A DNA stretch of 20,000 bases from an uncultured virus (IMG/VR IMGVR_UViG_3300010233_000006) (lineage: Duplodnaviria; Heunggongvirae; Uroviricota; Caudoviricetes): IMG/VR virus record IMGVR_UViG_3300010233_000006. The stretch is one strand, 5' to 3'. The position numbers were made by a program, and so were the translations under genes. The notes under the pieces were generated by a model. It was not told the DNA's origin and did not search any database. It saw only the letters and a list, made by a program, of their open reading frames with translations. Every line of letters starts with the position of its first letter. The first letter of the stretch is position 1. This document shows, in pieces, positions 363 through 20,000 of this stretch.

Positions 363-817
363 AGGGTACCTTGGACTGCACAACTTTCGGGAGATGCGGC
401 GAGTTCACGTTCAGGAAGTCCATCCCGCAATCGTCCACCATAAACGCGGGTGAACAGCAAGATCTCTTTGCGCTCGTCATATTCCATGAATGTCCAAATT
501 GGACCAGGCAGCTGTATCTTCGAATAATCGGGCCACGGTGAAGGCGGCGGCGATTGCCAGGGCTTTAAATCCATGAGGGCATTGTCATATGCCTGAATCG
601 TTGCCTCGGATGGCTGCGGATTCAGCAGGTCGAAGGCTCGCAAATCCAAAGCTTCCAGCGCGTGTCGGATTACCCTGTATGTCCCTGCCCAAACACACTC
701 GAACCTGATCCAGTATCCGATACAAACTGACCATTCTGCAAAATGCGTCAGAGCCTTAGGTGCGCTGCCGACCACCCAATTCTTCACGCCGCAGGTGAGC
801 AAAGATTCTTCTTTCAT
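359..817 (-). CDS. Hypothetical protein (152 aa)
   Basis: Start placed at ATG 817 (MKEESLL...), which forms an ATGA overlap with the glycosyltransferase stop; its own stop forms an ATGA overlap with the methyltransferase start. No recognisable motif. Confidence 0.65.
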   Translation of the reverse strand: MKEESLLTCGVKNWVVGSAPKALTHFAEWSVCIGYWIRFECVWAGTYRVIRHALEALDLRAFDLLNPQPSEATIQAYDNALMDLKPWQSPPPSPWPDYSKIQLPGPIWTFMEYDERKEILLFTRVYGGRLRDGLPERELAASPESCAVQGTL

Positions 818-1491
818 GCGGCACCCCACGCATATCCCGAAACGTCCGGGTTGGTGGCCAGTCGCATCCAAGGACCCTGCTCCGTCTTCCGCTCCGAAGT
901 GTTTCCAGAATGGACCGTGGCCACGAGGAATTGCTCTCCGTTCACATTGGCCAGTTGATTCTCGGCGGCGGCCCGGTAGCCAAAACCTTCATCCTGTCCG
1001 ATCTGTAAATGTTCAAACGGATGGGAAAGCCACCAGGACCGCAGAAAACAAAGCGAAGCGCCAAGCGCGATATTCACGCCACCAGGATACCGCCACCAGA
1101 TGGAATTGTCAGTAAAGCAGCAGGTGTGGTATGCCGACACGGCCTTGCCGCTTCCGACTAGCCGTTCCACCTGGTCTGTTAGGCGCCCTGGTGCATACCA
1201 GTCATCATCGTCCTGAATGGCGATTACTTCCGCGTCGATCAGGGAGCAGCCGAGGTTCCGCTTCTCTCCCATTGTCCGGGGCCGGGTATCGTTATCCACG
1301 ATGCACAGCGTAATGCGCGGATCGTCTGTGGGAACCAGGTCGCTCACGTCTTCCCCGTCCGCAAGGATCAGCAGGCGCTTGGCCGGATAGTCCTGCCATT
1401 GGAAGCAGCGGATCGCCTTCGGGAGCCATTGGCGACGGTTCCGAGTGCAGCAGAGGCAGGTGACTGTTGGATAGATTTCAAGGCCGGGCAT
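814..1491 (-). CDS. Glycosyltransferase family 2 (GT-A fold)
   Basis: PTVTCLCCTRNR...LPKAIRCFQWQDYP..LLILADG, MGEKRNLG and the DxD-type motif IAIQDDDDWYAPGRL. Confidence 0.92.
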   Translation of the reverse strand: MPGLEIYPTVTCLCCTRNRRQWLPKAIRCFQWQDYPAKRLLILADGEDVSDLVPTDDPRITLCIVDNDTRPRTMGEKRNLGCSLIDAEVIAIQDDDDWYAPGRLTDQVERLVGSGKAVSAYHTCCFTDNSIWWRYPGGVNIALGASLCFLRSWWLSHPFEHLQIGQDEGFGYRAAAENQLANVNGEQFLVATVHSGNTSERKTEQGPWMRLATNPDVSGYAWGAA

Positions 1492-1666: not shown

Positions 1667-2050
1667 TTACACATTCTCCTGCAGCCCAAGGCAGTTAAGC
1701 TCTAAAACTGCGTTCATTTCCATCACATTGGCCACGGATCGGATCAAGTAGGTACTGCCGTTGTCGCTGGCCACCCGCATGTCCGGTGTGATTCCCGGCT
1801 GATAGTACATCGTGACGATCAGGTAGAGCTCCGTAACGGTCAAACCTCCGCGGATCACTTCTGTGCCTGAAACGATGTCGATGGCCGCCATTGCTGTCGT
1901 AAAAGGATTCCAAACGGACTTCGGGCCGGCCGCATCGAAGTTCGGTGGGCTGGCTGGACCCTGTTTCTGGATCGTCACCAGGTGCCGAAGCTTCCCGATG
2001 TCGATGATCGGGAACCCACCCACGATCTCATAGGACTGGCTTAGAGGCAT
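1667..2050 (-). CDS. Phage head closure / head-tail joining protein (SPP1 gp16-like)
   Basis: IGKLRHLVTIQ...D..G....W...IVTMYYQPGITPDMRV...YLIRSV.N...LELNC pattern; position downstream of the connector. Confidence 0.9.
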   Translation of the reverse strand: MPLSQSYEIVGGFPIIDIGKLRHLVTIQKQGPASPPNFDAAGPKSVWNPFTTAMAAIDIVSGTEVIRGGLTVTELYLIVTMYYQPGITPDMRVASDNGSTYLIRSVANVMEMNAVLELNCLGLQENV

Positions 2051-2338: not shown

Positions 2339-5041
2339 TTACTGCGGGTTTACCAGCAAATATAGGTCGCACGCCTTGACCTGACCCCGTCCCGTCATGA
2401 TTGTGTTCGTCAGCGGGTACCTGCCGTTTGCACTTGCCCCCAACCAAGCACTAGCCGATTGTGTATCATTTGTTGGATTCGTGACCGGGACGGGAGGCGA
2501 TGCCTGCCAGGAGCTGGAGGCTACCGTATCGGTTCCGAGCATCGGTGTCCACAATAACTGGAAGTTTTCATTGCTCCTCGGATCCTTCTCGACCGGTACC
2601 TGGGTCGCATTCACGATGCCGGGGACGAGAGCAACGGTCAACGTCAGATTCACCACTTTGACTTCTCCCGAGTCCAGGTTGGCCAAGACTGAGATCAGAT
2701 AGGCTTGCCCGCTGGCTCCCCCTCCGATCCGAATTCGCGCCATGGGCAGCGCCAACCCCTGATCGGCCAGCGTGATGCCCGCAACCGCCGGCACCGAAAT
2801 CGAATTGATCGTAGTTATGCCCGCCAGGCCGGTCAGATCGATATCAAAGTCCTCGGTGCTCAGTGGATGCTTCAGCAGGTAGAGCATGACTTCCTCCTGG
2901 ACCATGAAAGAGCGCTGGCATACCGGCACGGGGATGACGTTTGATCGGGCGGCTACCGTGAAACTGCGTTGCAAGACCGGGACCGTTAGCAGCCGGATCG
3001 TGGCCGGTGTGATGTATCGGGCCAGTGTGGCAGCGAAGATCGCGAGTGAGACGTGATCCCGGAAGGTAACGAGCGGCCCGGCTCCAATGTGCGCTCCCAG
3101 CCCGATGCCGATCTGTGCCGCCGCCTGGAGGAAAGCCGCAGATTGGAAGCCCTCCGCAGATCCCAAAACAAGAACATCCCGCACGTCCAGACGAACGGAA
3201 TTACCGATTCCCGCCAGGAGCCCAAGCGTGGCCGAAACGAAGCCGCCTACCGCGACCCCAGCTTGGGCTGATGCCGCCACGCCTAAGCCGATCACATCGC
3301 TGTAGACTGTCGCCCCGCCGGGGTTCGCCGCAATTCCCTGGAGAATTCCAGCCGCAATGGCGCCCGCAATGACCGCCTGGGCATTTGCAGAAGTTCCAGC
3401 GGCAATTCCCAGGGGGGCACCGGCTTGCACGATGGCTTGGGATGCGGCTGTCGTAGCCTCCTGAGATCCCAGCGCAATGGCGCCCCGCAGAACTGCTTGC
3501 GCCGTGGTGACAGAGGCCGCCAGGATTCCGATGCCGACAGGACCGGAAAAGGCCGTGAGCAATGAATAGGAAAGGCCCGCCTGAACGCCCAGTCCAATCC
3601 CGTCCCGGATTGAGGCTGTCCCTGAATCTGTAGTGCCAGAGGATATTCCCAACGTTATGGGTACGCCGAATGCGGTCGCCAGGGCATCGGAAGTGGCAAG
3701 AAGTGCCCCCAGGCTCAGGACATCTCGAAATGTGGCGAAGTCCACTTCCGCAGTTCCGCCGGCCACGCCAAAAGTCAAGGCTCCGGAGAATCCGACGGCT
3801 ACCTGCTGGGCTGTCCCCGCCGCGACACCGAAAGTCAGCGAATCGTTATAAACGTTCGCCGCCACCATTCGGTAGGCCGCGAGGATAATGCAGGACACCG
3901 TGGCGCTCGACTCGGTGGCCGAGACGGTACCGCCCGCACTCGCCACAGTCTGATCTTCCCCCTCCGCCGAAAAGGTACCCGACCAGAGATTCCGCTGCGT
4001 CCAGCCACTGCCGCTGAACGCATCGCCTTCTCCTACTCCGAGAGCGATCACCAATTCGTTATTGTGTCCCGTCGTCAGGTTGGCGGTTGAGTGGCCGACC
4101 GTGCCGTCATCCGTAGCACTCGAGGTGGTGTCGACCGGTGGAGATCCGACAGTGGGGTATTCCAGGAATCCCGCGCCGGCTAACAGGATGCCGGAAGCCA
4201 CATTCCCAAAATCGACCGTCAATATAGGCCGATTGCCACCCGTTCCCACTACTGCGCTGTAGATCCAGGCATGGACTGCATGAGAAGAGGATGATGCCTT
4301 ACGTGTGGCGCTGACATCCGCGACGTAGGAATTGCCCTGGTTGTCCGAGATTGAGACGGAGCGGATCCAGGTAATCCGAGCCTGGCCGCGGGCACCGTTG
4401 CCACCGACTCCTCCCGTGGCCGCGGAGCCGCCACCGCCGCCACCGGGTGCCGCCCCATTGGCCCCACTGCCAATGCCTGCACCAGCACCGCCTGTTCCAC
4501 CGTTGGCACCATTCCCGCCGTCGCCACCGGTAGCACCAGCGGCCGAAACTCCAACACCGCCGGTAGTGGAAATCGTCGACGAAGCGCCCGCGCCGAAGGT
4601 CGGGGAGGAGCCGGTCCCCGGAGATCCCCCAGTTCCGCCGTCGGTTCCCGAGGGTACGGTGACCTTGTGTGTTGCTCCCTTGGCGATCAGGGAGTCCTGG
4701 TCTGTGTCCCCTATTGTGACCGTCAGCGCATCGCCCGGAGTGACGCTGAACGTCCCCTTGCCATAGCCACCACCACCACCACCGTCACCACCATTGCTTA
4801 CGCCGTCCCCCGGGCCACCGGTGCCACCCGCACCCCATACCTCGAAGATCACCTGTGTGCAACCGGTCGGAACCGTGACGCTGGTATCGCCGAGGGTCGT
4901 ATATAAATATTGATCGACCGATCCGCTCCAAATCTGAACTATCAGCAAATCCCCTGCTACGACATTCGAATCGAATTGCAGGGTATAACTGCTGTTGGGC
5001 GCCGGCCCGGCGATCTTGGACTGGATAGGGTCGTAGGACAC
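2339..5041 (-). CDS. Virion fibre-like protein: beta-rich N-domain with an inserted glycine-rich domain, ~20-aa repeat shaft, and two C-terminal fibre-adaptor-like domains
   Basis: 900-aa ORF with GTG start; Gly-rich block (VPTGCTQVIFEVWGAGG...GGGGGG); 20-aa periodic repeats; C-terminal LKHPLSTEDFDIDL and EKDPRSNENFQLLW domains; lies in the structural operon. Confidence 0.75.
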   Translation of the reverse strand: MSYDPIQSKIAGPAPNSSYTLQFDSNVVAGDLLIVQIWSGSVDQYLYTTLGDTSVTVPTGCTQVIFEVWGAGGTGGPGDGVSNGGDGGGGGGYGKGTFSVTPGDALTVTIGDTDQDSLIAKGATHKVTVPSGTDGGTGGSPGTGSSPTFGAGASSTISTTGGVGVSAAGATGGDGGNGANGGTGGAGAGIGSGANGAAPGGGGGGSAATGGVGGNGARGQARITWIRSVSISDNQGNSYVADVSATRKASSSSHAVHAWIYSAVVGTGGNRPILTVDFGNVASGILLAGAGFLEYPTVGSPPVDTTSSATDDGTVGHSTANLTTGHNNELVIALGVGEGDAFSGSGWTQRNLWSGTFSAEGEDQTVASAGGTVSATESSATVSCIILAAYRMVAANVYNDSLTFGVAAGTAQQVAVGFSGALTFGVAGGTAEVDFATFRDVLSLGALLATSDALATAFGVPITLGISSGTTDSGTASIRDGIGLGVQAGLSYSLLTAFSGPVGIGILAASVTTAQAVLRGAIALGSQEATTAASQAIVQAGAPLGIAAGTSANAQAVIAGAIAAGILQGIAANPGGATVYSDVIGLGVAASAQAGVAVGGFVSATLGLLAGIGNSVRLDVRDVLVLGSAEGFQSAAFLQAAAQIGIGLGAHIGAGPLVTFRDHVSLAIFAATLARYITPATIRLLTVPVLQRSFTVAARSNVIPVPVCQRSFMVQEEVMLYLLKHPLSTEDFDIDLTGLAGITTINSISVPAVAGITLADQGLALPMARIRIGGGASGQAYLISVLANLDSGEVKVVNLTLTVALVPGIVNATQVPVEKDPRSNENFQLLWTPMLGTDTVASSSWQASPPVPVTNPTNDTQSASAWLGASANGRYPLTNTIMTGRGQVKACDLYLLVNPQ

Positions 5042-5095
5042 GGAATGATCTGATCGATGCGGAACCTGCCAAACGTTGGGCCAGCAGAACTACTG

Positions 5096-5917
5096 CTATG
5101 CCGATGCTGCAGTCAACGTGACCGTGACGTGTTGATCTTGCACGAACTTGCGAGCCTCTTGTGGGGTGATTTTCGACCGCCTGCTCGTTGCTGAAAGAAT
5201 ACGGATAGTCACCCCGCACCCGCAGTGTGGGCAAAACTTCCAGGTAGCCTGCATACCTGCCTTACACTGAGGACATTCTCTCCCGCTGGCGTTGACACTC
5301 AGAGGCAACGTCAGGGCCTTTTCAATAGGCATACCCTTTCGCAATCGTGCTACGAGCACGTGAGAAGGAATCCCAATTTCAGCGGCCCATTCCCAGACGA
5401 ATTTACGCTCGCCTTCGAATTCTATTTGGCGGACATTGCGGCGGTTTCGCATCTGATCAGTGCGGCTGGCCCACCGACAGTTAGTTTTGGAATATGGGCC
5501 ATCATTGTCGATCCGGTCAAGGCTGGTATTCGTTGGCCGTTCGCCCATGTCAGCAAGAAATCCCTCGAAATATTCCCAACCAGGGTCATAGGAGATGCCG
5601 CGTCCCCCGTAGTTCGCGTATGAATTGTTATTTGGGTTGGTACACCGGCTCCGCATTGCCGCCCATGCAGTATATGTTGGAGTTTTTCTTCCGCGACGTG
5701 CCCAGCCATGGCGCTTGCGACCTGGATGGTCTTCCTTCCAGCATCCGCATGATTTAACCGAACTACAGATCAAGGCACTTGTGGGAACCTCGGTTATTGC
5801 TCCGCAGGCGCACTTGCACCGCCATCGCCTCTTTCGTTTACGGCCAACACCGCAGATTGGCTCAATGGCTGTCAGGCGGCCGAACGTCTTACCAGTTATG
5901 TCTATAGAACCTGGCAT
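5096..5917 (-). CDS. Free-standing HNH homing endonuclease-like protein with a C-terminal zinc ribbon
   Basis: DITGKTFGRLTA..WRCKCACG..SCGC, W..MRSRC.NP..YGGRGI, SLDRIDNDGPYSKTNCRWA..Q.RNRR; extra CPQC..CPHC motif. Confidence 0.9.
   Translation of the reverse strand: MPGSIDITGKTFGRLTAIEPICGVGRKRKRRWRCKCACGAITEVPTSALICSSVKSCGCWKEDHPGRKRHGWARRGRKTPTYTAWAAMRSRCTNPNNNSYANYGGRGISYDPGWEYFEGFLADMGERPTNTSLDRIDNDGPYSKTNCRWASRTDQMRNRRNVRQIEFEGERKFVWEWAAEIGIPSHVLVARLRKGMPIEKALTLPLSVNASGRECPQCKAGMQATWKFCPHCGCGVTIRILSATSRRSKITPQEARKFVQDQHVTVTLTAASA
5111..5130. repeat. 20-bp direct repeat, copy 1 (downstream end of the HNH insertion)
   Basis: AGTCAACGTGACCGTGACGT, identical to 5958-5977. Confidence 0.92.
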
Positions 5918-5923
5918 GAGTCC

Positions 5924-5932
5924 ATGGTAGCA
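5924..5932 (-). promoter_or_regulatory. Putative extended -10 promoter giving a leaderless HNH mRNA
   Basis: Minus strand TG-C-TACCAT, 6 nt, then ATG (5917); no strong Shine-Dalgarno. Confidence 0.45.
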
Positions 5933-5942
5933 TACATTAGTG

Positions 5943-6452
5943 TCACGCGCTACTGGAAGTCAACGTGACCGTGACGTTGACGCTGTCGCCCGAGGCAACT
6001 CCGCGTGGGGTAGCGAAATCGGCAACCCCGTAGAGCGTCCCGGCGGTCCCGCTTTTGGTGTTGTCTGTTACCACGAAGGCCCCTGCAATGGTGGCCGTAC
6101 CGTTGATCGAAAACACTGCCTTCGAGGCCGAATTGTCTACCGATTGTCCCGACACCGCCCCGAGCGTCAGCGTCTGCCGAACGGTTTCCGAATATCCGGT
6201 CGCTTCCGACCAGGCTCCATGGGAGGCCATCGTATCGGCCGCTACTGCGGTTCCGGCACCCTTCAGGCCGACGTAGAAGGCTGCCGTGTAGGAGGCCCCC
6301 TTGAAGTACTTGGAGAGGATGTCGTTCAATCCCACATTGACGGTGAGATTGTCAATTTCCTCGGTCCACTTCAGGCGTCCTTCCGAGTCGAAGCAGTCGA
6401 TGCGGTAGGTGTTTTTCACGGCCAGGGAGGCCTGGAAAGATTCGTTCTTCAT
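5943..6452 (-). CDS. Phage virion structural protein (fibre-associated, beta-rich)
   Basis: KW.EEIDNLTVNVGLNDIL...FYVGL...DTMASH.AW.E.TGY...GAF...GTLY...F...R.V.SGD..NVT pattern, which I recall from phage neck/fibre gene clusters; AAGGA upstream. Confidence 0.75.
   Translation of the reverse strand: MKNESFQASLAVKNTYRIDCFDSEGRLKWTEEIDNLTVNVGLNDILSKYFKGASYTAAFYVGLKGAGTAVAADTMASHGAWSEATGYSETVRQTLTLGAVSGQSVDNSASKAVFSINGTATIAGAFVVTDNTKSGTAGTLYGVADFATPRGVASGDSVNVTVTLTSSSA
5958..5977. repeat. 20-bp direct repeat, copy 2 (3' end of the 169-aa structural gene)
   Basis: AGTCAACGTGACCGTGACGT, identical to 5111-5130. Confidence 0.92.
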
Positions 6453-6470: not shown

Positions 6471-6893
6471 ATGGCCAACCGACGAGACTTCCTGAAAATG
6501 TTCGGCGTAGGGGCGACCATCGTTCCCGTCATCGGAGGACTGCCCAGTATGGCGGTCTCGGCAAATCTGATCGAAGTCCCAAAGGTGGAGCCCGTGCGCC
6601 TAGCGTCACCAGCGGAAATCCATGATCTGAATGCTCCGCCCGCTCCTGGAGATATCGCCCGGATGTACCTCGACGTATCCACTAGGGACGGTAAACGCTT
6701 CCGGTTTACTGCCGAGGTCATGACTGTCGATTTAATGGGGCCGCAGAGGTACCGTCCAGACCTCAGAAGTTTTAATGATCCCTACGGCATGATTCCATGT
6801 CCTGTACCAAGCATGGAATGGGATCTCAAGCTCCACGTCCTATCCGGGCCGCACATGACCGTGTACGCTAATCCGGCATCCCCACAATATTGA
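6471..6893 (+). CDS. Antisense moron-like protein with a twin-arginine (Tat)-like signal peptide (140 aa)
   Basis: MANRRDFLKMFGVGATIVPVIGGLPSMAVSA matches (S/T/N)RRxFLK plus an h-region; fills the gap between two minus-strand genes; TATCCT lies 6 nt before the ATG. Confidence 0.72.
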   Translation: MANRRDFLKMFGVGATIVPVIGGLPSMAVSANLIEVPKVEPVRLASPAEIHDLNAPPAPGDIARMYLDVSTRDGKRFRFTAEVMTVDLMGPQRYRPDLRSFNDPYGMIPCPVPSMEWDLKLHVLSGPHMTVYANPASPQY

Positions 6894-7773
6894 CCCGGTA
6901 CCCTGCCAGCAGATCATCCATGGTGTTCTGCACTTCCACCGAGATCAAGCCTCTCCCCGTGGCAATCGGGATTCGATTCTGGAAGTAGTGGGTGGCCAGG
7001 TAGAGAATCGCCATCTGAATACCGCTGGGGACGGCGCTTCCCCGGAAGACCACCGGGGTTGAAAACGGCAATGTCGCTTGCCCATTTGCGGAAACAACCA
7101 ATTGAAGCTGATCCGCGCTTGGGGGCGAACCAACTCCGGGAGTGTAGCTGGCTACGTCGAAGGATTGCCGATTGAACGTCATCCAGGTACCCACTAGGCG
7201 CGGGTCAAAGGTCCCCGATACCAAAGTGGCGACTCCATTCGCATCCACCGTGGCGGTCCCTGTGAATGACTGGTAGCCGCACACATAAGTGATCTGGATC
7301 GGACTCGCCGGCAGCAGGATGGTCGTCGGCCAGATGCCGGCAAAAGGAAGCCGTAACTCTCCCGGCTCTGGCTCCGTGTCCAGCAAATAGTTGCCACCTG
7401 ACGGCGTGTTACTGTATCCCTGCTGCATGGTGTGCAGGGCTCCGGTTGTATCGAAATAATTGAACGACACAATCGATTGCAGTGGCGGCTTGGGCAGCGG
7501 GATCTTGGAGAACTTATAGTATTCCCGCAGCCCGAAGTTCTGCTGGTAACCGATCAAGTAGCTCCTGCCCGGAAAATGCTGGAGCGCCAGGCGCCAGGTC
7601 TGCGGCAGAAACGCCCGCTTCGTGATTTTCTCGCAATCCCGCGTGGCCGCCGCGATGTAGCCGGCGATCAGGGAATCCTCTGTCCCTGCGAAGAACCGGG
7701 AGTGTGCCTTGACATCTGCCACGGAGATCGGATCGAAGGCGGGTGGGACAACGAGAGTGAGGCCGGAGAACAT
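6868..7773 (-). CDS. Head-tail connector/adaptor (HK97 gp6 / phiE125 gp8-like) with an extra inserted domain
   Basis: PPAFDPISVADVKAHSR...EDSLIAGYIAAATRDCE..TKRAFLPQTWRL, LPKPPLQSI, ITYVCGY, VPSGIQMAILYLATHYFQNR. Confidence 0.92.
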   Translation of the reverse strand: MFSGLTLVVPPAFDPISVADVKAHSRFFAGTEDSLIAGYIAAATRDCEKITKRAFLPQTWRLALQHFPGRSYLIGYQQNFGLREYYKFSKIPLPKPPLQSIVSFNYFDTTGALHTMQQGYSNTPSGGNYLLDTEPEPGELRLPFAGIWPTTILLPASPIQITYVCGYQSFTGTATVDANGVATLVSGTFDPRLVGTWMTFNRQSFDVASYTPGVGSPPSADQLQLVVSANGQATLPFSTPVVFRGSAVPSGIQMAILYLATHYFQNRIPIATGRGLISVEVQNTMDDLLAGYRVNIVGMPD

Positions 7774-8105: not shown

Positions 8106-8630
8106 TTATGCCAGCCCGCTGATGATCCGATAGCCCACCCGTACGATCAGGCTTCCATTCCCCGCCGTATATTCGGTGGCACTGGGATTCTGGAGCACGA
8201 CGGCCGTATTGAGGACCGTGCTCGTCACCCAGCCGGGACTGGCTGCGGGGAAGATTGGCGCGTCCCCCTGCAGTGCATTTGCCGCCGCGATTAATGCTGC
8301 GGAAGCCAGCCCGCTTCCGACCGCTTGGCCCCCGGCTCCCCAGTAGAGTCCCAGAATCCCGATGGAACTGGTGAACTGCGGACTCGTATATTGAAAATCC
8401 CACAGGATGCTGGTGACATCAATAAATGTGCCAGCTCCGGCGGCCGGGATGATCGTGACCGGGGTTCCATGTAAGGCTTTGATCTGCGCAGCGGTGATCG
8501 TCTTCGTAACCGCTTGCGGTAGGCCAAATCCCTCTCCGATGGCAAACTCGACGTTCCCGGCGGCCTTTCCGACGTACTGCATGCTGCCGTCTGATCCGAC
8601 GCGCGTAGTGACGGTGAAAATATCGCTCAT
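8106..8630 (-). CDS. Putative head-associated structural protein
   Basis: AAGGAG RBS; TITAAQIKALHGTPVTIIPAAGAG...GNGSLIVRVGY beta-rich pattern; located between capsid and connector genes. Confidence 0.7.
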   Translation of the reverse strand: MSDIFTVTTRVGSDGSMQYVGKAAGNVEFAIGEGFGLPQAVTKTITAAQIKALHGTPVTIIPAAGAGTFIDVTSILWDFQYTSPQFTSSIGILGLYWGAGGQAVGSGLASAALIAAANALQGDAPIFPAASPGWVTSTVLNTAVVLQNPSATEYTAGNGSLIVRVGYRIISGLA

Positions 8631-8695: not shown

Positions 8696-9805
8696 CTACC
8701 GCGCCGCCAGGGCGACGAACGGAGAAGTGGGCGTGCTGCCATTGGCCGGGGTTACGGCAGCATTATCAAGCGGACCTCCTGTTGCCCGGAGAATAAATCT
8801 GAAAATTTGCTGGCCCGATTCGAACAAAACGTGGACCGACACTTCACCTCGCAGCCGTTCCCGCATGGCTACCACATAGCGGCTGAAGTCTGCCAGGACG
8901 ACATCGCCCGGAGTTCCGGCCGCCTGACAATACTCCGATGGAAATGCCGGAAGTCCGCAGAGCCAATCGTGGCCCGCATCGTCCGAGAAGTTGTACTGCC
9001 AGGAATTCGATTGGCTACCGGCTGTTCCCACGATCGTAGTCAAGCCGGTCAATTGCGGGAGAAGGTCCGTGTTGTACAACCAGATCGCGTTCTTGCGGGA
9101 GGGTGCCCACAGGCTGGACCGCATCTTGGTGACATTCTGATTGATGACTGTTCCCGATCCCTGCCCTGCCTCTTTGGCCACCGTCACGGTTGCTGGTGCG
9201 TTGACCACTCCTAGCGGTTGCCCGGCACCGGTGCCGTTCACGATGAGATCCTCCAGCCGAAAGGTCAACTCCATGGAGAATGCATAGGTGGCCCAGGAAG
9301 TCAAGGCATCGGAGTCCATGGCCAGTTCATCTGTGAGTTTCAGAAGCCCGATGATCTTCTTAGGCGTGAGTGACGTTAACTGGAAATCCGGGAGAGTGGA
9401 AGGTGGCGTAACGGCTTCGGGCTCCACAAAGACCTGAATGCCGCCCAGACGGCTACCAGGTGCACGCGAGGTTTCATTGAACTGCGGACATTTGATGCTC
9501 TGCCGCTGCACCGGCATCTCGAAACAGCGTCCCAGGATGTCGCCGACGAGGTACGAGCGCCGGACAATCTCGCGAGAAAATTCAGGAGCCACCAGGAATC
9601 CGCCGCCCGATGGCAAGCCTTCCGAAGCACCGGCCGCTGTCGGACCCGCGGCGCGTTTCTGGACTTCGAGTAGGCGTGGATCGGGCGTGCTACCCGGATT
9701 CATGCCGAACTTCGCCACGGCATGCAACTGCTCTCCAAACGAACGGAACGGGCAGTCCTCGACGGCACGGATTGGCTCGAGCCGGGGAATTGATTTGGGC
9801 ATCAT
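8696..9805 (-). CDS. Second HK97-fold major capsid protein paralog lacking most of the N-terminal delta/scaffold domain (369 aa)
   Basis: GASEGLPSGGGFLVAPEFS, KKIIGL..LTDEL..DS, IVNGTGAGQPLGVVN, GDVVLADFSRY, SPFVALAAR, colinear with the upstream MCP; AGGAG 10 nt before ATG 9805. Confidence 0.93.
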   Translation of the reverse strand: MMPKSIPRLEPIRAVEDCPFRSFGEQLHAVAKFGMNPGSTPDPRLLEVQKRAAGPTAAGASEGLPSGGGFLVAPEFSREIVRRSYLVGDILGRCFEMPVQRQSIKCPQFNETSRAPGSRLGGIQVFVEPEAVTPPSTLPDFQLTSLTPKKIIGLLKLTDELAMDSDALTSWATYAFSMELTFRLEDLIVNGTGAGQPLGVVNAPATVTVAKEAGQGSGTVINQNVTKMRSSLWAPSRKNAIWLYNTDLLPQLTGLTTIVGTAGSQSNSWQYNFSDDAGHDWLCGLPAFPSEYCQAAGTPGDVVLADFSRYVVAMRERLRGEVSVHVLFESGQQIFRFILRATGGPLDNAAVTPANGSTPTSPFVALAAR

Positions 9806-9843
9806 GATGTGAGATCTCCTGATCAACAAGTGAAGAGAGGGAA

Positions 9844-9904
9844 GGGGCGGCCCGGAGGAAGGACGCCCCGCGTGAAAAGCGCACCTTTGGTAGGCTCAGT
9901 GCGC
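9844..9904 (-). terminator. Two hairpins, possible partial terminator/attenuator upstream of the second capsid gene
   Basis: Minus strand GCGCAC..GTGCGC followed by TTTT, then GGGGCG..CGCCCC followed by a pyrimidine tract. Confidence 0.45.
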
Positions 9905-9920
9905 CGGCTTCCCTATTTGG

Positions 9921-10451
9921 TTAGACAGTGGCGCTCGGGCTGCCCTTGTAGCCGTAGCGGGCTCCAGAGAGGATCCCGATTACGGAGCCGATATTCGCGT
10001 TCACACCATCGGCGATCACCACATAGACGTAGGGATACTCTGTGATGGTGCCGACGACCCCCGCTTGCACTTCCAATTCCGCGGCATCGATTTCGATGAC
10101 CCATACGAGATTGGAACAGGCAGCGGGCAAGGGCGCGGATGCCGGCAGGGAGCTCGTGATTCCGGTCGTATCCGCATAGAATGGACCGGTCAGCGTGTCG
10201 TTACCGGCCCCGCCCGTGGCCTGCAGATAGAAGCGGAAGCCCATGGCCTTGCTTGCCCCGATTGCCTCGGTGGTCGCCTGGCGGACGATGAACGAGGTCG
10301 GCTGGGCCGCCACCGATCCATAGCTGATGATGATGGACAGATGTTCGTAATTCGCCATATTGACGGGCAAGGTGGTCTTGCCCGAAGAGGTTGAGACTGC
10401 CGGAAGCATGTTCACGACGTGTCCCGCTTCCGCAATATTATATCCGTTCAT
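9921..10451 (-). CDS. Putative capsid decoration/cement protein
   Basis: AAGGAG RBS; closely follows the MCP; VNMANYEHLSIIISYG...VIEIDAAEL...YPYV...ILSGARY beta-sandwich-like pattern. Confidence 0.7.
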   Translation of the reverse strand: MNGYNIAEAGHVVNMLPAVSTSSGKTTLPVNMANYEHLSIIISYGSVAAQPTSFIVRQATTEAIGASKAMGFRFYLQATGGAGNDTLTGPFYADTTGITSSLPASAPLPAACSNLVWVIEIDAAELEVQAGVVGTITEYPYVYVVIADGVNANIGSVIGILSGARYGYKGSPSATV

Positions 10452-10636: not shown

Positions 10637-10645
10637 TGTGCCCCC

Positions 10646-10691
10646 TCCTCTAGTAGGGGTGCTGGCGGCAGCGTAGAGGACCGCCGCCAGC
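10646..10691 (-). promoter_or_regulatory. 11-bp hairpin whose loop can pair with the downstream RBS (H-type pseudoknot)
   Basis: GCTGGCGGCGG-TCCTCTACG-CTGCCGCCAGC-ACCCCTAC-TAGAGGA; loop TCCTCTA is complementary to TAGAGGA. Confidence 0.6.
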
Positions 10692-10737
10692 GCATCGGGG
10701 TAATTACTCCCAATGCTCAATGCCTATTGTAACTCCG

Positions 10738-12129
10738 TTACCGAGTGTCCAGGCAGACGAATGGACTCTGGGTATTCGAACCCTGCGCCGGCGTCAGCGT
10801 GGTTTTCCACCACGGTTGCGAATCGGTGCGGTAGATCCACCGATAGACCATTTCCGACGTCAGAAATCTGACGTGCATGGAAGTCGCGGTCTGAAGATCT
10901 CCCTTGTCTATCATCAGTTGTTGGCTGAAGTCGCACAGCATCACATCGCCGACAGTCCCGAGGGTTGAGGCTTGCTCGATGTTGATTACCGGGCGCCCGA
11001 AGAGTGTGGCATAGGGCGTGCCGGCCGCGCCCGTGGGCGGAAGATACACCGGCAATCCGCCGACGCCGACGACCTGACCCATCCCGTAGAGCTGCTGCTC
11101 GACATCCTGATTGATGAACCAGACCGCGTTCAACCGGGACTTGCTCCACATCCGGCCCCATGCCTTCTTGATGTTCTCCCATACGACGGTCTGCGCAGCT
11201 TGGCCGGTTTCCTTCGTGATCTTAATCAGGCAGTTTGAATTCAGGATGCCAAGCGGTTGGCCCGCACCGGTTCCCCGGATCATCGCGTCGTCCAGTTTGA
11301 ATCCGAATTCCTGCGCGAAGGCGGTCATCACGTAATTGCCCAGGAAGTTTTGATCGGCGAGTAGTTCATCGGTCGCGTAGAACAGGCCCGTCAGTTTTTT
11401 GAGGACCATCTCCAATATCGCGAAGGTGGGCTTACTGCCGACGAGCGATTGGGCTTCCTGCTCCCACATCATCTGAATGCCACCATTGCGGAAACCGTCT
11501 TTGCGCGACTGCTCGTCTACGGCCGGAATCTTCATTGCGTTCGTGAATTCGGCCAGTGGCAGTTTTCGTACGCGCGGGTAGATGAGCCCGGTGTCGTGCG
11601 CCAATTGGAGCAATTCCTGCGCAAATGAGGGAAACACGAGGAATCCGCCGTCTGATGGCACGGCTTCGGAGGCGCCAGCCGCCGCCGCGCGCTTCTCGAA
11701 TCCCTCGTTGAGCGCATACAGTCGGGGATCTCCCTTCTGTCCGGTGATCTGTCGCCGCTCCGCGTTTCGCACTTCGGCGAGAAATTCACCGAATCCACGG
11801 GAGATGCGCCGCAACCGTTGGTCCTTCGATTCGGCTGTCGGCTCGTCCGCTATCCACGGCTTGTCCAGCACATTGTCGTAGACCCGCGCCGGCTCGCTCC
11901 TTGGTCCCGTGCTCCGGTCGCTCGGGATGTTGGTCAGGGTGGCCATCCGTTCGGTTGCGTCGATGGTTGCCTGAATGTTGGCTGCTTCGGCGGTGAAGCC
12001 TTCGAACTTGGTGCGCTCTTCCGCCGTCATGGCTGCCCGCTTTTCGGTTTCCATTGTGGCCAGAATGCCTTGGGCCGAATCCAGCGCGGCAGCCTTACTC
12101 TGTCGTAAATCGAGCAAACGATTGCTCAT
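10738..12129 (-). CDS. Major capsid protein, HK97 family, with N-terminal coiled-coil delta domain (463 aa)
   Basis: Start reassigned to ATG 12129 (MSNRLLDLRQ) with AAGGAG; helical N-terminus, then GASEAVPSDGGFLVFP, KKLTGL.YATDELLAD, GTGAGQPLGILN, TLFGRPV, SPFVCLDTR. Confidence 0.96.
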   Translation of the reverse strand: MSNRLLDLRQSKAAALDSAQGILATMETEKRAAMTAEERTKFEGFTAEAANIQATIDATERMATLTNIPSDRSTGPRSEPARVYDNVLDKPWIADEPTAESKDQRLRRISRGFGEFLAEVRNAERRQITGQKGDPRLYALNEGFEKRAAAAGASEAVPSDGGFLVFPSFAQELLQLAHDTGLIYPRVRKLPLAEFTNAMKIPAVDEQSRKDGFRNGGIQMMWEQEAQSLVGSKPTFAILEMVLKKLTGLFYATDELLADQNFLGNYVMTAFAQEFGFKLDDAMIRGTGAGQPLGILNSNCLIKITKETGQAAQTVVWENIKKAWGRMWSKSRLNAVWFINQDVEQQLYGMGQVVGVGGLPVYLPPTGAAGTPYATLFGRPVINIEQASTLGTVGDVMLCDFSQQLMIDKGDLQTATSMHVRFLTSEMVYRWIYRTDSQPWWKTTLTPAQGSNTQSPFVCLDTR

Positions 12130-14535: not shown

Positions 14536-15015
14536 TTAGAGTTTCTCGGCGATGTATTCGGCCTCGTCCATTGCCTCGATCAAGCTCAACTGCTGGGCCA
14601 GCCATCCGACATGGCTTTGATGCCACTTTAGCAAGTGCTCGATCAGGTTTCTGGTCGTATCGTCCAGCGCCTTCATGGCCGTCTGAATTGTCTGCTCATA
14701 GGGAGCGACAATCGCCAGTTCCAGGCTGAGTTCGTTTTCGAACATGGCCGTCAACGTTTCCGACTCCATGATTCCAGACACCGGGTAGTTGAGCTTACCA
14801 CCGAGGAAGAGCAGCCGATCGGAAACTTTCTTGGCCCAGCAGTGAGCGTCGTCCCCGAAGGAATGCAGCTTCTTGGCGGTCTTCTTCACGCCGAGAAACT
14901 TTGCCAGCCGCCAATCCGCTCGATATTGCGCATTGAGGTGGACCTCTGCCGAGACTGCCAATTGCAGCGCCACCAGGACATCGGGATTGCCGGTGATCGG
15001 TGTACGGTTCGTCAT
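14536..15015 (-). CDS. bfr: Bacterioferritin-like protein with a non-canonical ferroxidase centre
   Basis: Aligns by eye end to end with E. coli Bfr (G...V...L......E.....QY; RLLFLGG; MFENELSLE; D..TR..HVGWL..QL.LI..M...EY); AAGGAG RBS. Confidence 0.88.
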   Translation of the reverse strand: MTNRTPITGNPDVLVALQLAVSAEVHLNAQYRADWRLAKFLGVKKTAKKLHSFGDDAHCWAKKVSDRLLFLGGKLNYPVSGIMESETLTAMFENELSLELAIVAPYEQTIQTAMKALDDTTRNLIEHLLKWHQSHVGWLAQQLSLIEAMDEAEYIAEKL

Positions 15016-15045: not shown

Positions 15046-16329
15046 CTAATGCGCAAGGCCGTTCGGCTTCGACTTCGGCGCTGGGGTCGGCACGATTTTC
15101 ATATCTCGCGGAGCGGTTTCGGGGTTTCCCCCTTCTGGCATCATGTTCACCGGGGTCCAGTACGCCTTGCCTATCCCATCAGGCTGGGCATTCATGTCAA
15201 GCAGGCCCTCTCTGATTTCATCTGCGTTCATGATTCCCCATTGGCGCAGGATAGCGATCCACTTTCCCATGGCCTCATGGTTGCCACGCAGCAGATTCAG
15301 ATAGTTAAATCTGGTGAAGATCGTCCGGAATTCCCGCGCGGACAGGAGCGAGGCATGCGTCTCCGATTCCCAGTTAGTGGTCCAGCGATTGAGAGAATAC
15401 AGAACGTATTCCAGGCTCAGCTCTTCGATGTTGTTGTTGGTGGCCCGGTCGAGCAGCCCGACGCGATGCTGGGGAACTCCATAGATCCGGCAGATGGCTT
15501 GTGCGGTGAGACCGGCAGTCTTGATGAATTCCGCGTCCACCATGTTGGATGCGGTTTCCTTATAGGTGACCCCCTCCTCCAGGATTGCGATGCGATACGC
15601 ATTGTCAAGTCCCTGGTGGCTCTCTGCCCAGTCCTTCTTGAGCCGTAAGAAGGCAGCGTCATCGATTTTCTGCGGATGCGTTAGCATGCCCCGAGGCTCA
15701 GCCGAGTTGCCGAAATATCTGGCACCATGCTCCGTGATAGCCATGTCGAGGCCGATTCGCTGCCGGTGGACTTCGATGGGAGAAAGCCCCGTTACGCCAT
15801 CGACCGACAATCCGCGCAAATGGAAAATCCGGTCGCCCGGCAAGGTGAACGGCTTCCCGTCCTGCATCTTGTACGTATACTGGAGCGGACCACCTTTATA
15901 TTGCCGGGTGATCTTCACCCGATCCGGGCGCCAGGGCCACAAAGCGGTAACCTGGCCGCGCCCATTGATCTCGATCTCGGCATAGGCATTGCCGTTCAAG
16001 CCCACCCATGTCTGCATCAGGTGGGTATACCGCCAGGCCGTCATTTCGGGATTCGCCTGGTCCTGCAACAAGCCCCAAAGATAGTGCTCGGTGGCGCGTT
16101 CTCGCCCTTCTTCCGTGCGCCGATATGTCATCTGGGGCATCGTGGCGATATCACTCGCCAGGGCGTCGACACAGGCCCAGACGGTATCCACTGCTAGGGC
16201 ACCGGTTTCCGAGACGAGCTTGCCGGTATAGGATGGTTGGCCCCCGAACTGTTGGTCAAGCAGTCGATCGAAATCCGACAGCGACATGCCAGCCCCAACC
16301 TGCTGTGCGGCCCTCCTTACAAGATTCAC
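15046..16329 (-). CDS. Portal protein, HK97 family
   Basis: TVWACVDALASDIATMP, ANPEMTA, LNGNAYAEI, IFHLRG.SVDGVTGLSPI, ICRIYGVP.H.VG, NNIEE, GIMNADEIR; GTG start with GAGG. Confidence 0.97.
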   Translation of the reverse strand: MNLVRRAAQQVGAGMSLSDFDRLLDQQFGGQPSYTGKLVSETGALAVDTVWACVDALASDIATMPQMTYRRTEEGRERATEHYLWGLLQDQANPEMTAWRYTHLMQTWVGLNGNAYAEIEINGRGQVTALWPWRPDRVKITRQYKGGPLQYTYKMQDGKPFTLPGDRIFHLRGLSVDGVTGLSPIEVHRQRIGLDMAITEHGARYFGNSAEPRGMLTHPQKIDDAAFLRLKKDWAESHQGLDNAYRIAILEEGVTYKETASNMVDAEFIKTAGLTAQAICRIYGVPQHRVGLLDRATNNNIEELSLEYVLYSLNRWTTNWESETHASLLSAREFRTIFTRFNYLNLLRGNHEAMGKWIAILRQWGIMNADEIREGLLDMNAQPDGIGKAYWTPVNMMPEGGNPETAPRDMKIVPTPAPKSKPNGLAH

Positions 16330-18235: not shown

Positions 18236-19989
18236 CTACAGGAACCGAATCCCCCGTGTCGAGTAGACCGATTGGAATGGCTCGGGCATCGTCAGGGCTC
18301 GATTGAGTGCCATGATAAGAGCCACAGCCCCATCGATCTTATTCTCTTCCCGCTCTTTCCGCGGGTAGATGTTGTCTTTGAGGTCCCGCCAGCAGACCAC
18401 ATTGGAAATCTCCCATCCCAGGATCGGATCGCCATTGTGGTGGAAGCGGCCCTCGAGAACGACGGCCTCCAGTTCCTTCATGGGCGCCGAGAAATTCTGG
18501 ACGTTGGCATCCAGCGCGACTAGGAGAACGTTTTGATTCCAATCCGGCCGCGCCCGCATGACTTGGAGCAGCGGTTCCGACTGGTAGGGATCGTGCGGGA
18601 TCTCCCGTACCACAAAACGCTTCACGTCCTCGATCAGGCCATCTGCGATCCAGTTCAGGTCTGTGACATTCCCCGGGGTGACGGTCAGCAATTCATCATT
18701 CTGCCAACCCTGGTAGTGGATACCCTTGGACACGGCCGCTTCGTTCAGATAGTGCTCGGCGAAGGCGTAGTAGTGAACCTTGGGCTTCCCGTCCCCATCT
18801 GGAATCACCTTGCGAAACAGCCGTACTTTCGCTGCGATATCCACCCGGCTGGCCAGATCCACCCCGATCCAGCATTCCTGACGCTCGAACTCTTCGATCT
18901 TGAGATTGGGGTCGCCGCATCGGTCCCAGGCCACCATGTTCATCCAGGCAACCGCTGCGTTTACCCAGACGTTCAGGTGCTTCGTCTTGAAGACGTTTTG
19001 CTTGCGGGCGCTGTTGATCGCGTCCCGCTGCGCATCCAGCAGAAAGTCCGGTGAGACTGAGACCCCATAGTTCGGGTTGGCCTTGATCAGCGCCGCTTCC
19101 GAGGTCCACAGGTCAGTTTCATCAACCGTGTAGATCAGAACGAATAGCCGGTCGTTCTGAATCTTGCCTTCGAGCACCTTCTGGCAATCGATCTGGAGTG
19201 CGTAGCAGGGCCCTGATCGATCGCTGCCGGCAGTAGTGATGACCAGTAGGAGCGGCGATTGGCGCGCCCCCATCCCGGTTTTCATCGTGTCGTAGAACGT
19301 GTCGTCCGTGTGTTCGTGGTACTCGTCTACGATTGCGCAGGAGGGTGAGGCACCATCACCAGGCTTACCAATAAGCGGCTCGAAGCGGCTCCCATTCGCT
19401 GCGATCACCAGGGACTTAGCGTTGATCTTGACCCCGAAGGCCTCCCGAAAGTCGAAAGTGCGTTCGGCCATCTGCTTGGCCGGCCGAAATACCTCCCATG
19501 CCTGCTTCTCCGTGGTGGCCCCGCTATAGACTTCTGCACCGAACTCTCCGTCGGCCGCAAACTTGTAGTTTCCGCTCGCGGCAGCCCAGGTGGATTTGNN
19601 NNNNNNNNNNNNNNNNNNNNNNNNNNNNNNNNNNNNNNNNNNNNNNNNNNNNNNNNNNNNNNNNNNNNNTCGCTCCGACTGGCCCAGACGCCCTTCGTGT
19701 GGGGCATGCTCTCGATGAAACGGCAGGCCCGGTGCGCCTTCGCCGGATTGTAGCGGTATTGCCAGTCGTCGCGTTCCAGGTCCCGGAAGTGGCGTTCGCA
19801 GGCCAACTTCACCCATTTGCACGCGGGGATCAAGTCGTCCAGTACATCACGCGCGTACTGGTTGGCCTTCTCGGAATAGCCCGGCGGGCTCGGCGGCTTA
19901 GTTCGGCTTGTTCGGGTTGAAGAGGTCGGTGATGCTTTGGCCTTCGTCGAGGTTCGCGAACGGGTTCTTCTTGTCGGGTTCTGGGACAA
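18236..19989 (-). CDS. terL: Terminase large subunit (interrupted by an assembly gap)
   Basis: N-terminal ANQYARDVL...ACKWVKLACERH...FIESMPHTKG, gap, then KSTWAA (end of Walker A), EVYSGATT..QA, AIVDEYHEH (Walker B), LLVITTAG, IGVDLASRVD, HNGDPIL.W, KIDGAVALIMA. TTG start at 19989 is tentative. Confidence 0.95.
19599..19669. other. Assembly gap (71 N)
   Basis: Run of N; explains the apparent frame change within terL. Confidence 0.99.
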
Positions 19990-20000
19990 CGGACACCTTG
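19898..20000 (-). CDS. terS: Terminase small subunit, 3' end (P27-like)
   Basis: Manual translation ...KVSVVPEPDKKNPFANLDEGQSITDLFNPNKPN*; the NPF..L tail and overlap with the terL start are typical. Confidence 0.65.
   Translation of the reverse strand, partial: KVSVVPEPDKKNPFANLDEGQSITDLFNPNKPN

Follow-up and report, generated by a model that had tools for sequence, protein, structure and literature searches.

The 20,000-nucleotide (nt) stretch of DNA analysed here (hereafter the window), from the IMG/VR record IMGVR_UViG_3300010233_000006 of an uncultured virus of the Caudoviricetes, a phage of soil type, encodes two major capsid proteins (MCPs), a long one (MCP1) and a shorter one, MCP2, which is the subject of this study. 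Sequence comparisons indicate that MCP2 is the conserved and probably functional second shell gene of an old head module with two MCPs and a double protease. The gene is intact and conserved, its product has the HK97 fold, MCP1 and the double protease are inherited along with it, and of the two capsid proteins MCP2 is the derived one. The reading that we favour, at a probability of roughly 0.5, is that MCP2 serves as a minor, position-specialised shell subunit, probably forming the pentons; both its co-assembly with MCP1 and its penton position are inferred by analogy.

The open frame of MCP2 spans 8696..9829 on the minus strand, and translation probably begins at the ATG at 9805, which AGGAGA precedes by 9 nt. 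A preliminary description of this DNA, made from the letters alone, had seen MCP2 as colinear with MCP1 and diverged from it, and the alignment bears this out (36% identity over 369 columns, E = 2e-61 in BLASTP), with shared motifs running from FGEQL/FGEFL through DPRL and AAGASE..PS.GGFLV up to the C-terminal SPFV.L..R; in the numbering of the long open reading frames (ORFs), residue 144 of MCP1 aligns with residue 29 of MCP2. The same description was right that MCP2 lacks about 90 N-terminal residues of MCP1 (369 amino acids (aa) against 463 aa, counted from the likely starts), which make up the delta or scaffold part. In MCP2, the conserved F..FGEQL with which the N-arm starts has only about 20 residues before it, against about 110 in MCP1, so that MCP2 is without a delta domain, and the first 75 residues of MCP1 are helix-prone by a simple composition count (49 of 75 are A, E, K, R, L, Q or T, and four are P or G). 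The mature parts of the two proteins are equal in size, at about 350 aa. Both match the capsid family PF05065 far above its cut-off of 24.2 bits, MCP2 with 103.9 bits (E = 1.4e-29) over profile positions 1-278 of 280 and MCP1 with 129.6 bits (E = 1.9e-37); MCP1 also matches phrog_10 (E = 2e-37) and starts at the ATG at 12129, behind AAGGAG.

From an alignment of 34 rows, AlphaFold2 gave a model of MCP2 with a mean predicted local distance difference test (pLDDT) score of 85.7 and the canonical HK97 fold with a spine helix of 26 residues. It is matched by 337 PDB chains at E <= 0.001, the top ones all being capsids, and the best matches are the capsid of the Rhodobacter capsulatus gene transfer agent (RcGTA), Mycofy1, the capsid-forming phage-inducible chromosomal island (cf-PICI) EcCI2, T5 and HK97 (E about 1e-12, TM-scores of 0.5-0.62). 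In the alignment with HK97 gp5, which stands at only about 13-15% identity, the K169 column holds K in 18 of 18 MCP1 and 17 of 18 MCP2 sequences, the window MCP2 carrying L, while the N356 column holds M or I and the E363 column D. MCP2 is a complete capsid gene of the HK97 fold; it is no artefact of the assembly and not a copy in decay.

The conservation of the pair was followed by locus scans with a 12-row alignment (A2), the genome scan covering one genome per species. The only locus of the genome scan, L001, is a close one and lies on a 295-kilobase (kb) contig of a Bryobacterales genome; the hosts of the dual-MCP lineage are probably Acidobacteriota. Its gene order is portal, S49+S78 protease (594 aa), MCP (475 aa), a 184-aa protein, a 161-aa protein, short MCP (384-aa ORF) and adaptor, and its proteins are identical to those of the window at 58% (portal), 51% and 46% (the two protease domains), 63% (MCP1), 49% (the 176-aa protein between the MCP genes), 56% (MCP2) and 48% (adaptor) of positions. 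The chimeric assembly for which the preliminary description had allowed can be set aside, because this independent genome has the same gene order. The metagenome scan returned three loci, two of which (L003 and L004, on contigs of 2.6 and 3.1 kb) have the MCP split over two ORFs and were not used further. In IMG/VR, a scan with a single protein found no relative, and the alignment scan found 80 loci, each with one long MCP at no more than 44% identity; since all 80 are single-MCP loci, the dual lineage was not found in that collection. In 50,697 phage records searched by tblastn, MCP2 matched 21 and MCP1 18, at one place each and at no more than 38% identity, and none of the 21 records matched by MCP2 was a T4-like, c2-like or mycobacterial phage, and neither MCP matched a lactococcal phage.

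The protein database holds at least 120 homologs of MCP2, mostly of 350-390 aa and 45-82% identity, all of them nearer to MCP2 than MCP1 is, and at least 120 homologs of MCP1, mostly of 450-505 aa. Among the 120 + 120 matches listed, 18 MCP2 matches share the exact 'longest_contig' value with an MCP1 match (one further shared value belonged to the same protein, P0088, present in both lists, and was not counted as a pair), and 11 of these 18 pairs share the value also with a fused S49+S78 protease. When three such matched triples were looked up, each protein was found on exactly one contig of that length.

A tree of 92 rows and 347 mature-domain columns (quick IQ-TREE search, LG+G4) placed all 18 paired short proteins in one clade of 38 rows, with a support of 99 in the Shimodaira-Hasegawa-like approximate likelihood ratio test (SH-aLRT), and all 18 paired long proteins in another of 29 rows, with a support of 100; ordinary single-MCP relatives stand on the MCP1 side of the tree. 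The branching is repeated between the two clades: pairs 2 and 3, 6 and 9, and 14 and 15 are sisters in both, pairs 5, 12 and 16 fall within one subclade in both, and pairs 8, 10, 11 and 17 lie outside the crown group of the window's pair in both. The distance matrices of MCP1 and MCP2 over the 18 pairs are correlated accordingly (Mantel r = 0.707, a value reached in none of 5000 permutations). These repeated sister groups and the matrix correlation indicate that MCP1 and MCP2 have long travelled together under purifying selection. Relaxed selection on MCP2, which the preliminary description had considered, was looked for and not borne out, since the divergence of MCP2 is only 1.24 times that of MCP1 (mean p-distances of 0.47 and 0.38), and 64 columns are conserved with an identical residue in both clades. 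MCP1 and MCP2 are as similar within a genome (identity 0.41) as between genomes (0.40), which argues that gene conversion is absent. Six columns are fixed differently between the clades, and because the ordinary relatives carry the MCP1 residue at five of the six, MCP2 is best seen as the derived, specialised copy. As to the origin of the paralogs, the phylogeny proposed in the preliminary description gave two well-separated clades and left duplication and acquisition undivided: the free tree does not join the MCP1 and MCP2 clades, and a joint clade was not rejected by the approximately unbiased (AU) test (p = 0.465). Both an ancient duplication and an acquisition would be compatible with that test; MCP2 is not a recent in-situ copy.

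The protease of the module is likewise unusual. In the window it comprises an S49 domain at residues 160-299 (PF01343, E = 2.4e-19) and an S78 domain at residues 577-709 (PF04586, E = 2.4e-23), with an extra insert of about 170 aa between them that was recognised by alignment with the fused proteases of L001 (5363-7147) and of a further locus, L002 (6091-7923). The S49 (SppA/ClpP-like) and the S78 (HK97 gp4-like) domains both retain their serine and histidine motifs, and 69 database clusters carry both PF01343 and PF04586 in a search with the L001 protease. The motif A-R-L-x-x-L stands at the protease C-terminus in three copies in L002 and in one copy in the window and in L001. At the single-MCP loci of IMG/VR, the longest upstream ORF could be scanned in 70 of 80 cases, the other ten having no suitable ORF; S78 alone was found in 10, S49 alone in 6, ClpP in 4 and both domains in none, and most of the other 50 were portals. 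Within this sample, the double protease appears to go with the MCP2 clade and not with its ordinary relatives. A literature search for the S49+S78 combination gave no paper, a search of this kind being no proof that the fusion is undescribed.

In the arrangement that we propose, MCP1 and MCP2 would be expressed from one late operon, MCP2 probably at the lower level; being without a delta domain of its own, MCP2 would co-assemble into a procapsid organised by the MCP1 delta domain and the S49+S78 protease, and it would take up a special lattice position, most likely that of the eleven pentons. We prefer this minor or vertex role because MCP2 is conserved and co-inherited with MCP1, because in both the window and L001 it stands behind a terminator-like element that follows the block of MCP1 and the jelly-roll gene, because the layout is that of the phages Jabs and Nocturne116, with a long scaffold-bearing hexon gene and then a short paralog, and because relaxed selection and a chimeric assembly were both not borne out. 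Two traits of a penton paralog are seen here: in the head operon of the window and of L001 the main MCP is followed by another HK97-fold gene, and MCP2 is without the scaffold extension. Among the roles named in the preliminary description (vertex or minor subunit, capsid size modulator, decoy), the minor or vertex subunit is the best supported, and nothing was found to support the decoy.

Several known systems offer a likeness. In phage T4, the vertex protein gp24 has a much shorter N-terminal propeptide, just as MCP2 has a shorter N-terminus than MCP1. T4 builds its hexamers from gp23 and its vertex pentamers from gp24, which, like MCP1 and MCP2, are paralogs encoded by neighbouring genes (PMC3012670); T4, however, has a separate scaffold core and one protease (gp21), whereas in the window the scaffold is the MCP1 delta domain and the protease has two domains. 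The siphophage Jabs of Mycobacterium abscessus, with a T = 9 head, forms its hexons from MCPh (ORF72, 594 aa) and its pentons from MCPp (ORF73, 257 aa), encoded by adjacent genes (bioRxiv 10.64898/2026.07.24.740622). Jabs resembles the window in having a long HK97-fold gene followed by a short one without the N-terminal extension, the other head genes being single-copy; it differs in that MCPp is much smaller and has a reduced axial domain. The window in turn differs from Jabs in the jelly-roll gene and the hairpins between the MCP genes and in its doubled protease. In Lactococcus phage Nocturne116, the MCP gene is followed by that of a dedicated vertex protein (VP), which the authors see in all c2-like phages (PMC13595954), so that a diverged HK97-fold paralog stands after the MCP and is conserved across a whole lineage, as in the window; the c2-like phages, as presented there, have prolate heads, Gram-positive hosts and a weak similarity between MCP and VP, whereas the pair of the window's lineage is 36-41% identical. 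The head-tailed viruses of anaerobic methanotrophic archaea (ANME-1) of the proposed Ekchuahviridae carry a pair of divergent MCPs of the HK97 fold and a separate maturation protease for each MCP, arrangements to which the preprint assigns no role (bioRxiv 10.1101/2022.07.04.498658). There, too, MCP and protease are doubled and the other structural genes single; these are archaeal viruses with separate protease genes, whereas the S49 and S78 domains of the window are fused and its hosts are probably Acidobacteriota. The earlier remark that HK97-type phages usually use a single MCP is dated by Jabs, Nocturne116 and the ANME-1 viruses. In tblastn against the same phage records, MCP2 had no sequence kinship with gp24, MCPp or VP, and since no T4-like, c2-like or mycobacterial records were matched, its likeness to them lies in layout and not in descent. 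The window's lineage is set apart by its fused double protease, its full-sized short paralog, the intervening jelly-roll gene and its offshoots without MCP1.

The expression layout was assessed from the intergenic elements. The preliminary description had placed MCP2 behind terminator-like hairpins that could lower its expression. Two stems, of 8 and 9 pairs, do exist at 9844-9905, the first followed by TTTT and the second by a pyrimidine-rich run, but neither has a proper T-run and the terminator scan of the window did not flag them. In L001, a canonical terminator (GC stem and T-run) follows the gene of the 184-aa homolog, at the same place as the weaker hairpins of the window, and the HK97 record has an annotated terminator directly after gp5. 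Upstream in the window, the stretch 10640-10737, which contains a 12-pair hairpin after MCP1, folds with -47.8 kcal/mol as a whole. From the two genomes, the layout fits a high output of MCP1 and the jelly-roll protein and a lower output downstream, which would include MCP2. In both sequences, the ribosome site of MCP2 has ahead of it a stem of the GGGGCG type and then a pyrimidine-rich run, at 9836-9870 on the minus strand of the window and at 9925-9965 on the plus strand of L001, this being a comparison of two sequences.

Several observations weigh against the favoured penton role. The mature domain of MCP2 is full-sized, with no reduced axial domain as in Jabs MCPp, and the RNA of 9844-9905 folds with -39.6 kcal/mol (z = -1.44), not better than its shuffles. 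The 18 pairs rest on equal 'longest_contig' values, the DNA having been checked for the window and L001, and 13 of the 29 short matches on contigs of at least 10 kb have no MCP1 partner among the 120 matches listed. Above all, although the 18 pairs and their correlated divergence speak for the two genes being kept together, MCP2-clade genes without MCP1 occur in small tRNA-integrated elements (L002 and L099). L002, which appears satellite-like, occupies about 11.6 kb at one end of a metagenome contig of 110 kb and carries a RepO-like gene with four 23-nt iterons inside it (2588-2724), two ORFs without assignment, the S49+S78 protease, the short MCP (388-aa ORF), two small ORFs, an integrase and tRNA-Met, between 55-nt repeats derived from tRNA-Met at 347-401 and 11932-11986, 11,585 nt apart. 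The end of its protease gene overlaps the start of the short MCP ORF, no MCP1 was found within 8 kb upstream or 3 kb downstream, and its MCP, the same sequence as P0012, falls within the crown group of paired proteins. L099 carries PrimPol-D5, HNH, an S78-only protease, a 352-aa MCP of the MCP2 clade, a fibre-like protein and an integrase by tRNA-Lys, and the MCP profile matched only once in its genome. A protein restricted to pentons would not be expected from the only capsid gene of an element, unless L002 and L099 borrow the MCP1 of a helper, and this occurrence without MCP1 is the main evidence against a strict penton-only role; some MCP2-type proteins would either build shells alone or need a helper's MCP1. 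Among the ORFs scanned in L002 and L099 there was no portal or terminase family; cf-PICIs carry both. Short MCPs beside integrases in L091, L100 and L101 fall outside the MCP2 clade, and genomes with any match at the thresholds used numbered 3 of 401 in the phylum sample and 7 of 401 in the order sample. The cf-PICI EcCI2 (PDB 9gyi), compared by fold match, is like L002 and L099 in being a small integrated element that has an HK97 capsid gene of its own, its chains ranking 6 and 8 among the fold matches of MCP2, whereas the window MCP2 lies inside a full phage head-tail module.

The elements without MCP1 lend some weight to a different account, rather unlikely in our judgement, in which MCP2 and the double protease form a self-sufficient module and the phage makes two alternative shells that share no lattice, of different size or as an insurance against capsid-targeting interference. 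The sole capsid gene of L002 and L099 belongs to the MCP2 clade, the protease abuts the MCP gene in L002, where the three A-R-L-x-x-L copies could be a scaffold or targeting peptide replacing the delta domain, and P0005 and P0024 share a 'longest_contig' value with the fused protease, with no MCP1 among the matches listed; a full-sized mature domain also fits a self-sufficient shell protein. Against this, portal, adaptor and terminase are single-copy, the long co-divergence of MCP1 and MCP2 suits partners better than alternatives, and the members without MCP1 are nested among paired ones and thus look like secondary losses. We know of no phage that makes two kinds of head from two MCP genes. 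The evidence of co-inheritance serves equally well the idea that the two proteins share a lattice in another manner, as mixed hexamers or with one kind of hexon (for example those beside the pentons or on the threefold axes) made from MCP2, which we hold to be distinctly unlikely. The equal size of the mature domains and the 64 identical core columns speak for it, and two-component HK97-type encapsulin shells of variable composition are described in PMC11071501; the solved tailed-phage cases nevertheless all divide hexon from penton, and a low copy number is suggested by the terminator-like element in front of MCP2.

The last explanation would keep MCP2 out of the virion altogether, as a decoy or as interference against capsid-sensing defence or capsid-stealing satellites. 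According to the preliminary description, some defence systems sense the MCP, and the relatives of MCP2 in satellite-like elements imply that capsid conflicts exist in the lineage. In both genomes, however, MCP2 is encoded within the head operon, with MCP1 on one side and the adaptor on the other, it retains the full fold and the core residues, and its long co-divergence with MCP1 bears no sign of arms-race turnover, so that this role is very improbable. A more speculative extension, to which we give little credence, is that the double protease and MCP2 constitute a portable mini capsid kit that has escaped from dual-MCP phages on several occasions and given rise to satellite-like elements of about 11-15 kb (L002, L099 and perhaps the contigs of P0005 and P0024), which would bring their own pentons and protease and take their hexons (MCP1 with its scaffold) from a dual-MCP helper. 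If true, such a kit would amount to the hijacking or resizing of capsids by owning the vertices alone.

Until 2026, T4 was the textbook exception to the rule of one HK97-fold protein per head, and two cryo-electron microscopy papers of that year added Jabs and the c2-like phages. To these the window adds another bacterial lineage, the third outside T4; this lineage is large, uncultured and probably infects Acidobacteriota, and its second shell gene, old and conserved, is coupled to a single-chain S49+S78 protease. If MCP2 is a penton protein, dedicated vertex proteins would be a recurrent solution and no oddity, and capsid genes in viromes would have to be counted with caution, since two MCP genes can belong to a single phage. 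The small elements without MCP1 may be regarded as a natural experiment in which a vertex-type protein becomes, or comes from, a stand-alone shell protein.

The long genes of the window are all on the minus strand and constitute a phage head-to-tail module (Table 1); in the protein database, the window's proteins are carried by a contig of 77,002 bases.

Table 1. Features of the 20,000-nt window, in the order of transcription.
Feature	Position	Strand	Remarks
Large terminase	18236-19998	-	
137-aa protein with hydrophobic N-terminal segment	17467-17880	-	between terminase and portal
Portal, single copy	15046..16329	-	PF04860, E 5e-90; 58% identity to L001 portal
Ferritin-like gene	14536-15015	-	PF00210, E 3.6e-12; between portal and protease, within the head module
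Head maturation protease, S49+S78, 728 aa	12339..14525	-	
MCP1, 463 aa	10738..12129	-	
Strong 12-pair GC-rich hairpin	10661..10691	-	no T-run; just after MCP1 stop
Small ORF, 47 aa	10493..10636	-	one CxxC; GAGGAGG before ATG; sequence reading
Jelly-roll protein, 176 aa	9921..10451	-	candidate cement/decoration protein
Two hairpins	9844..9905	-	between jelly-roll gene and MCP2; possibly an attenuator
Shine-Dalgarno sequence AGGAGA	9815..9820	-	9 nt before MCP2 ATG; sequence reading
MCP2, 369 aa	8696..9805	-	
174-aa protein after MCP2	8106..8630	-	no family found (Pfam, PHROG)
Head-tail adaptor	6868..7773	-	next conserved structural gene; phrog_442, E 9.6e-18; 48% identity to L001 11092-11949
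HNH endonuclease with C-terminal zinc ribbon	5096-5917	-	phrog_374, E 1.8e-61; inserted among fibre genes
Head-closure protein	1667-2050		
225-aa protein, glycosyltransferase	814-1491	-	after head-closure gene

The 176-aa protein, encoded between the two MCP genes in the window and in L001, has 139 relatives, the L001 homolog of 184 aa being encoded at 8774-9328 (49% identity), and no Pfam or PHROG family was found for it. Its model (pLDDT 89.9) is a jelly-roll sandwich which VIA-align matches to YomS (Z = 10.7), XepA (Z = 10.4), chain G of the phage 7-7-1 capsid (Z = 8.3), chain H of a BPP-1 capsid entry whose title speaks of jellyrolls securing chainmail (Z = 7.0) and chain B of the Carin1 capsid (Z = 6.6). 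Since values of Z below 8 are often reached by chance in the library used, a cement or decoration role is a reasonable lead and no result. The 174-aa protein of the window has a weak homolog in the 161-aa protein of L001 (E = 5e-05 over the first 70 residues in BLASTP), so that the small gene stands after MCP2 in the window and before it in L001. A tandem duplication of a two-gene block was also considered and ruled out, as the 176-aa protein is no paralog of the 174-aa one (E = 14).

Elsewhere in the module, the ferritin-like gene is without a counterpart in L001 and therefore looks like an inserted accessory gene. An encapsulin with ferritin-like cargo was likewise ruled out, given this lack of a counterpart and the portal, terminase, adaptor and fibre genes around MCP2. 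A run of 71 N at 19599-19669 lies inside the large terminase gene, which is thus not readable through, and the 137-aa protein has a weak pilin match below the cut-off (PF00114, E = 0.0086). The matching place of L001 lacks the whole region 2339-6452, which holds a gp80-like fibre gene, the HNH endonuclease and a glycine-rich protein of 900 aa whose end is GP4 gp77-like, and no tRNA gene was found in the 20,000-nt window. Bbp16 was the only family lead given by Protein Atlas (score 0.87) and is a lead only. The 225-aa protein is 48% identical to a family-2 glycosyltransferase (PF00535) encoded at the same place in L001 (12822-13484 on the plus strand), which indicates that the position of this gene is conserved in the structural module.

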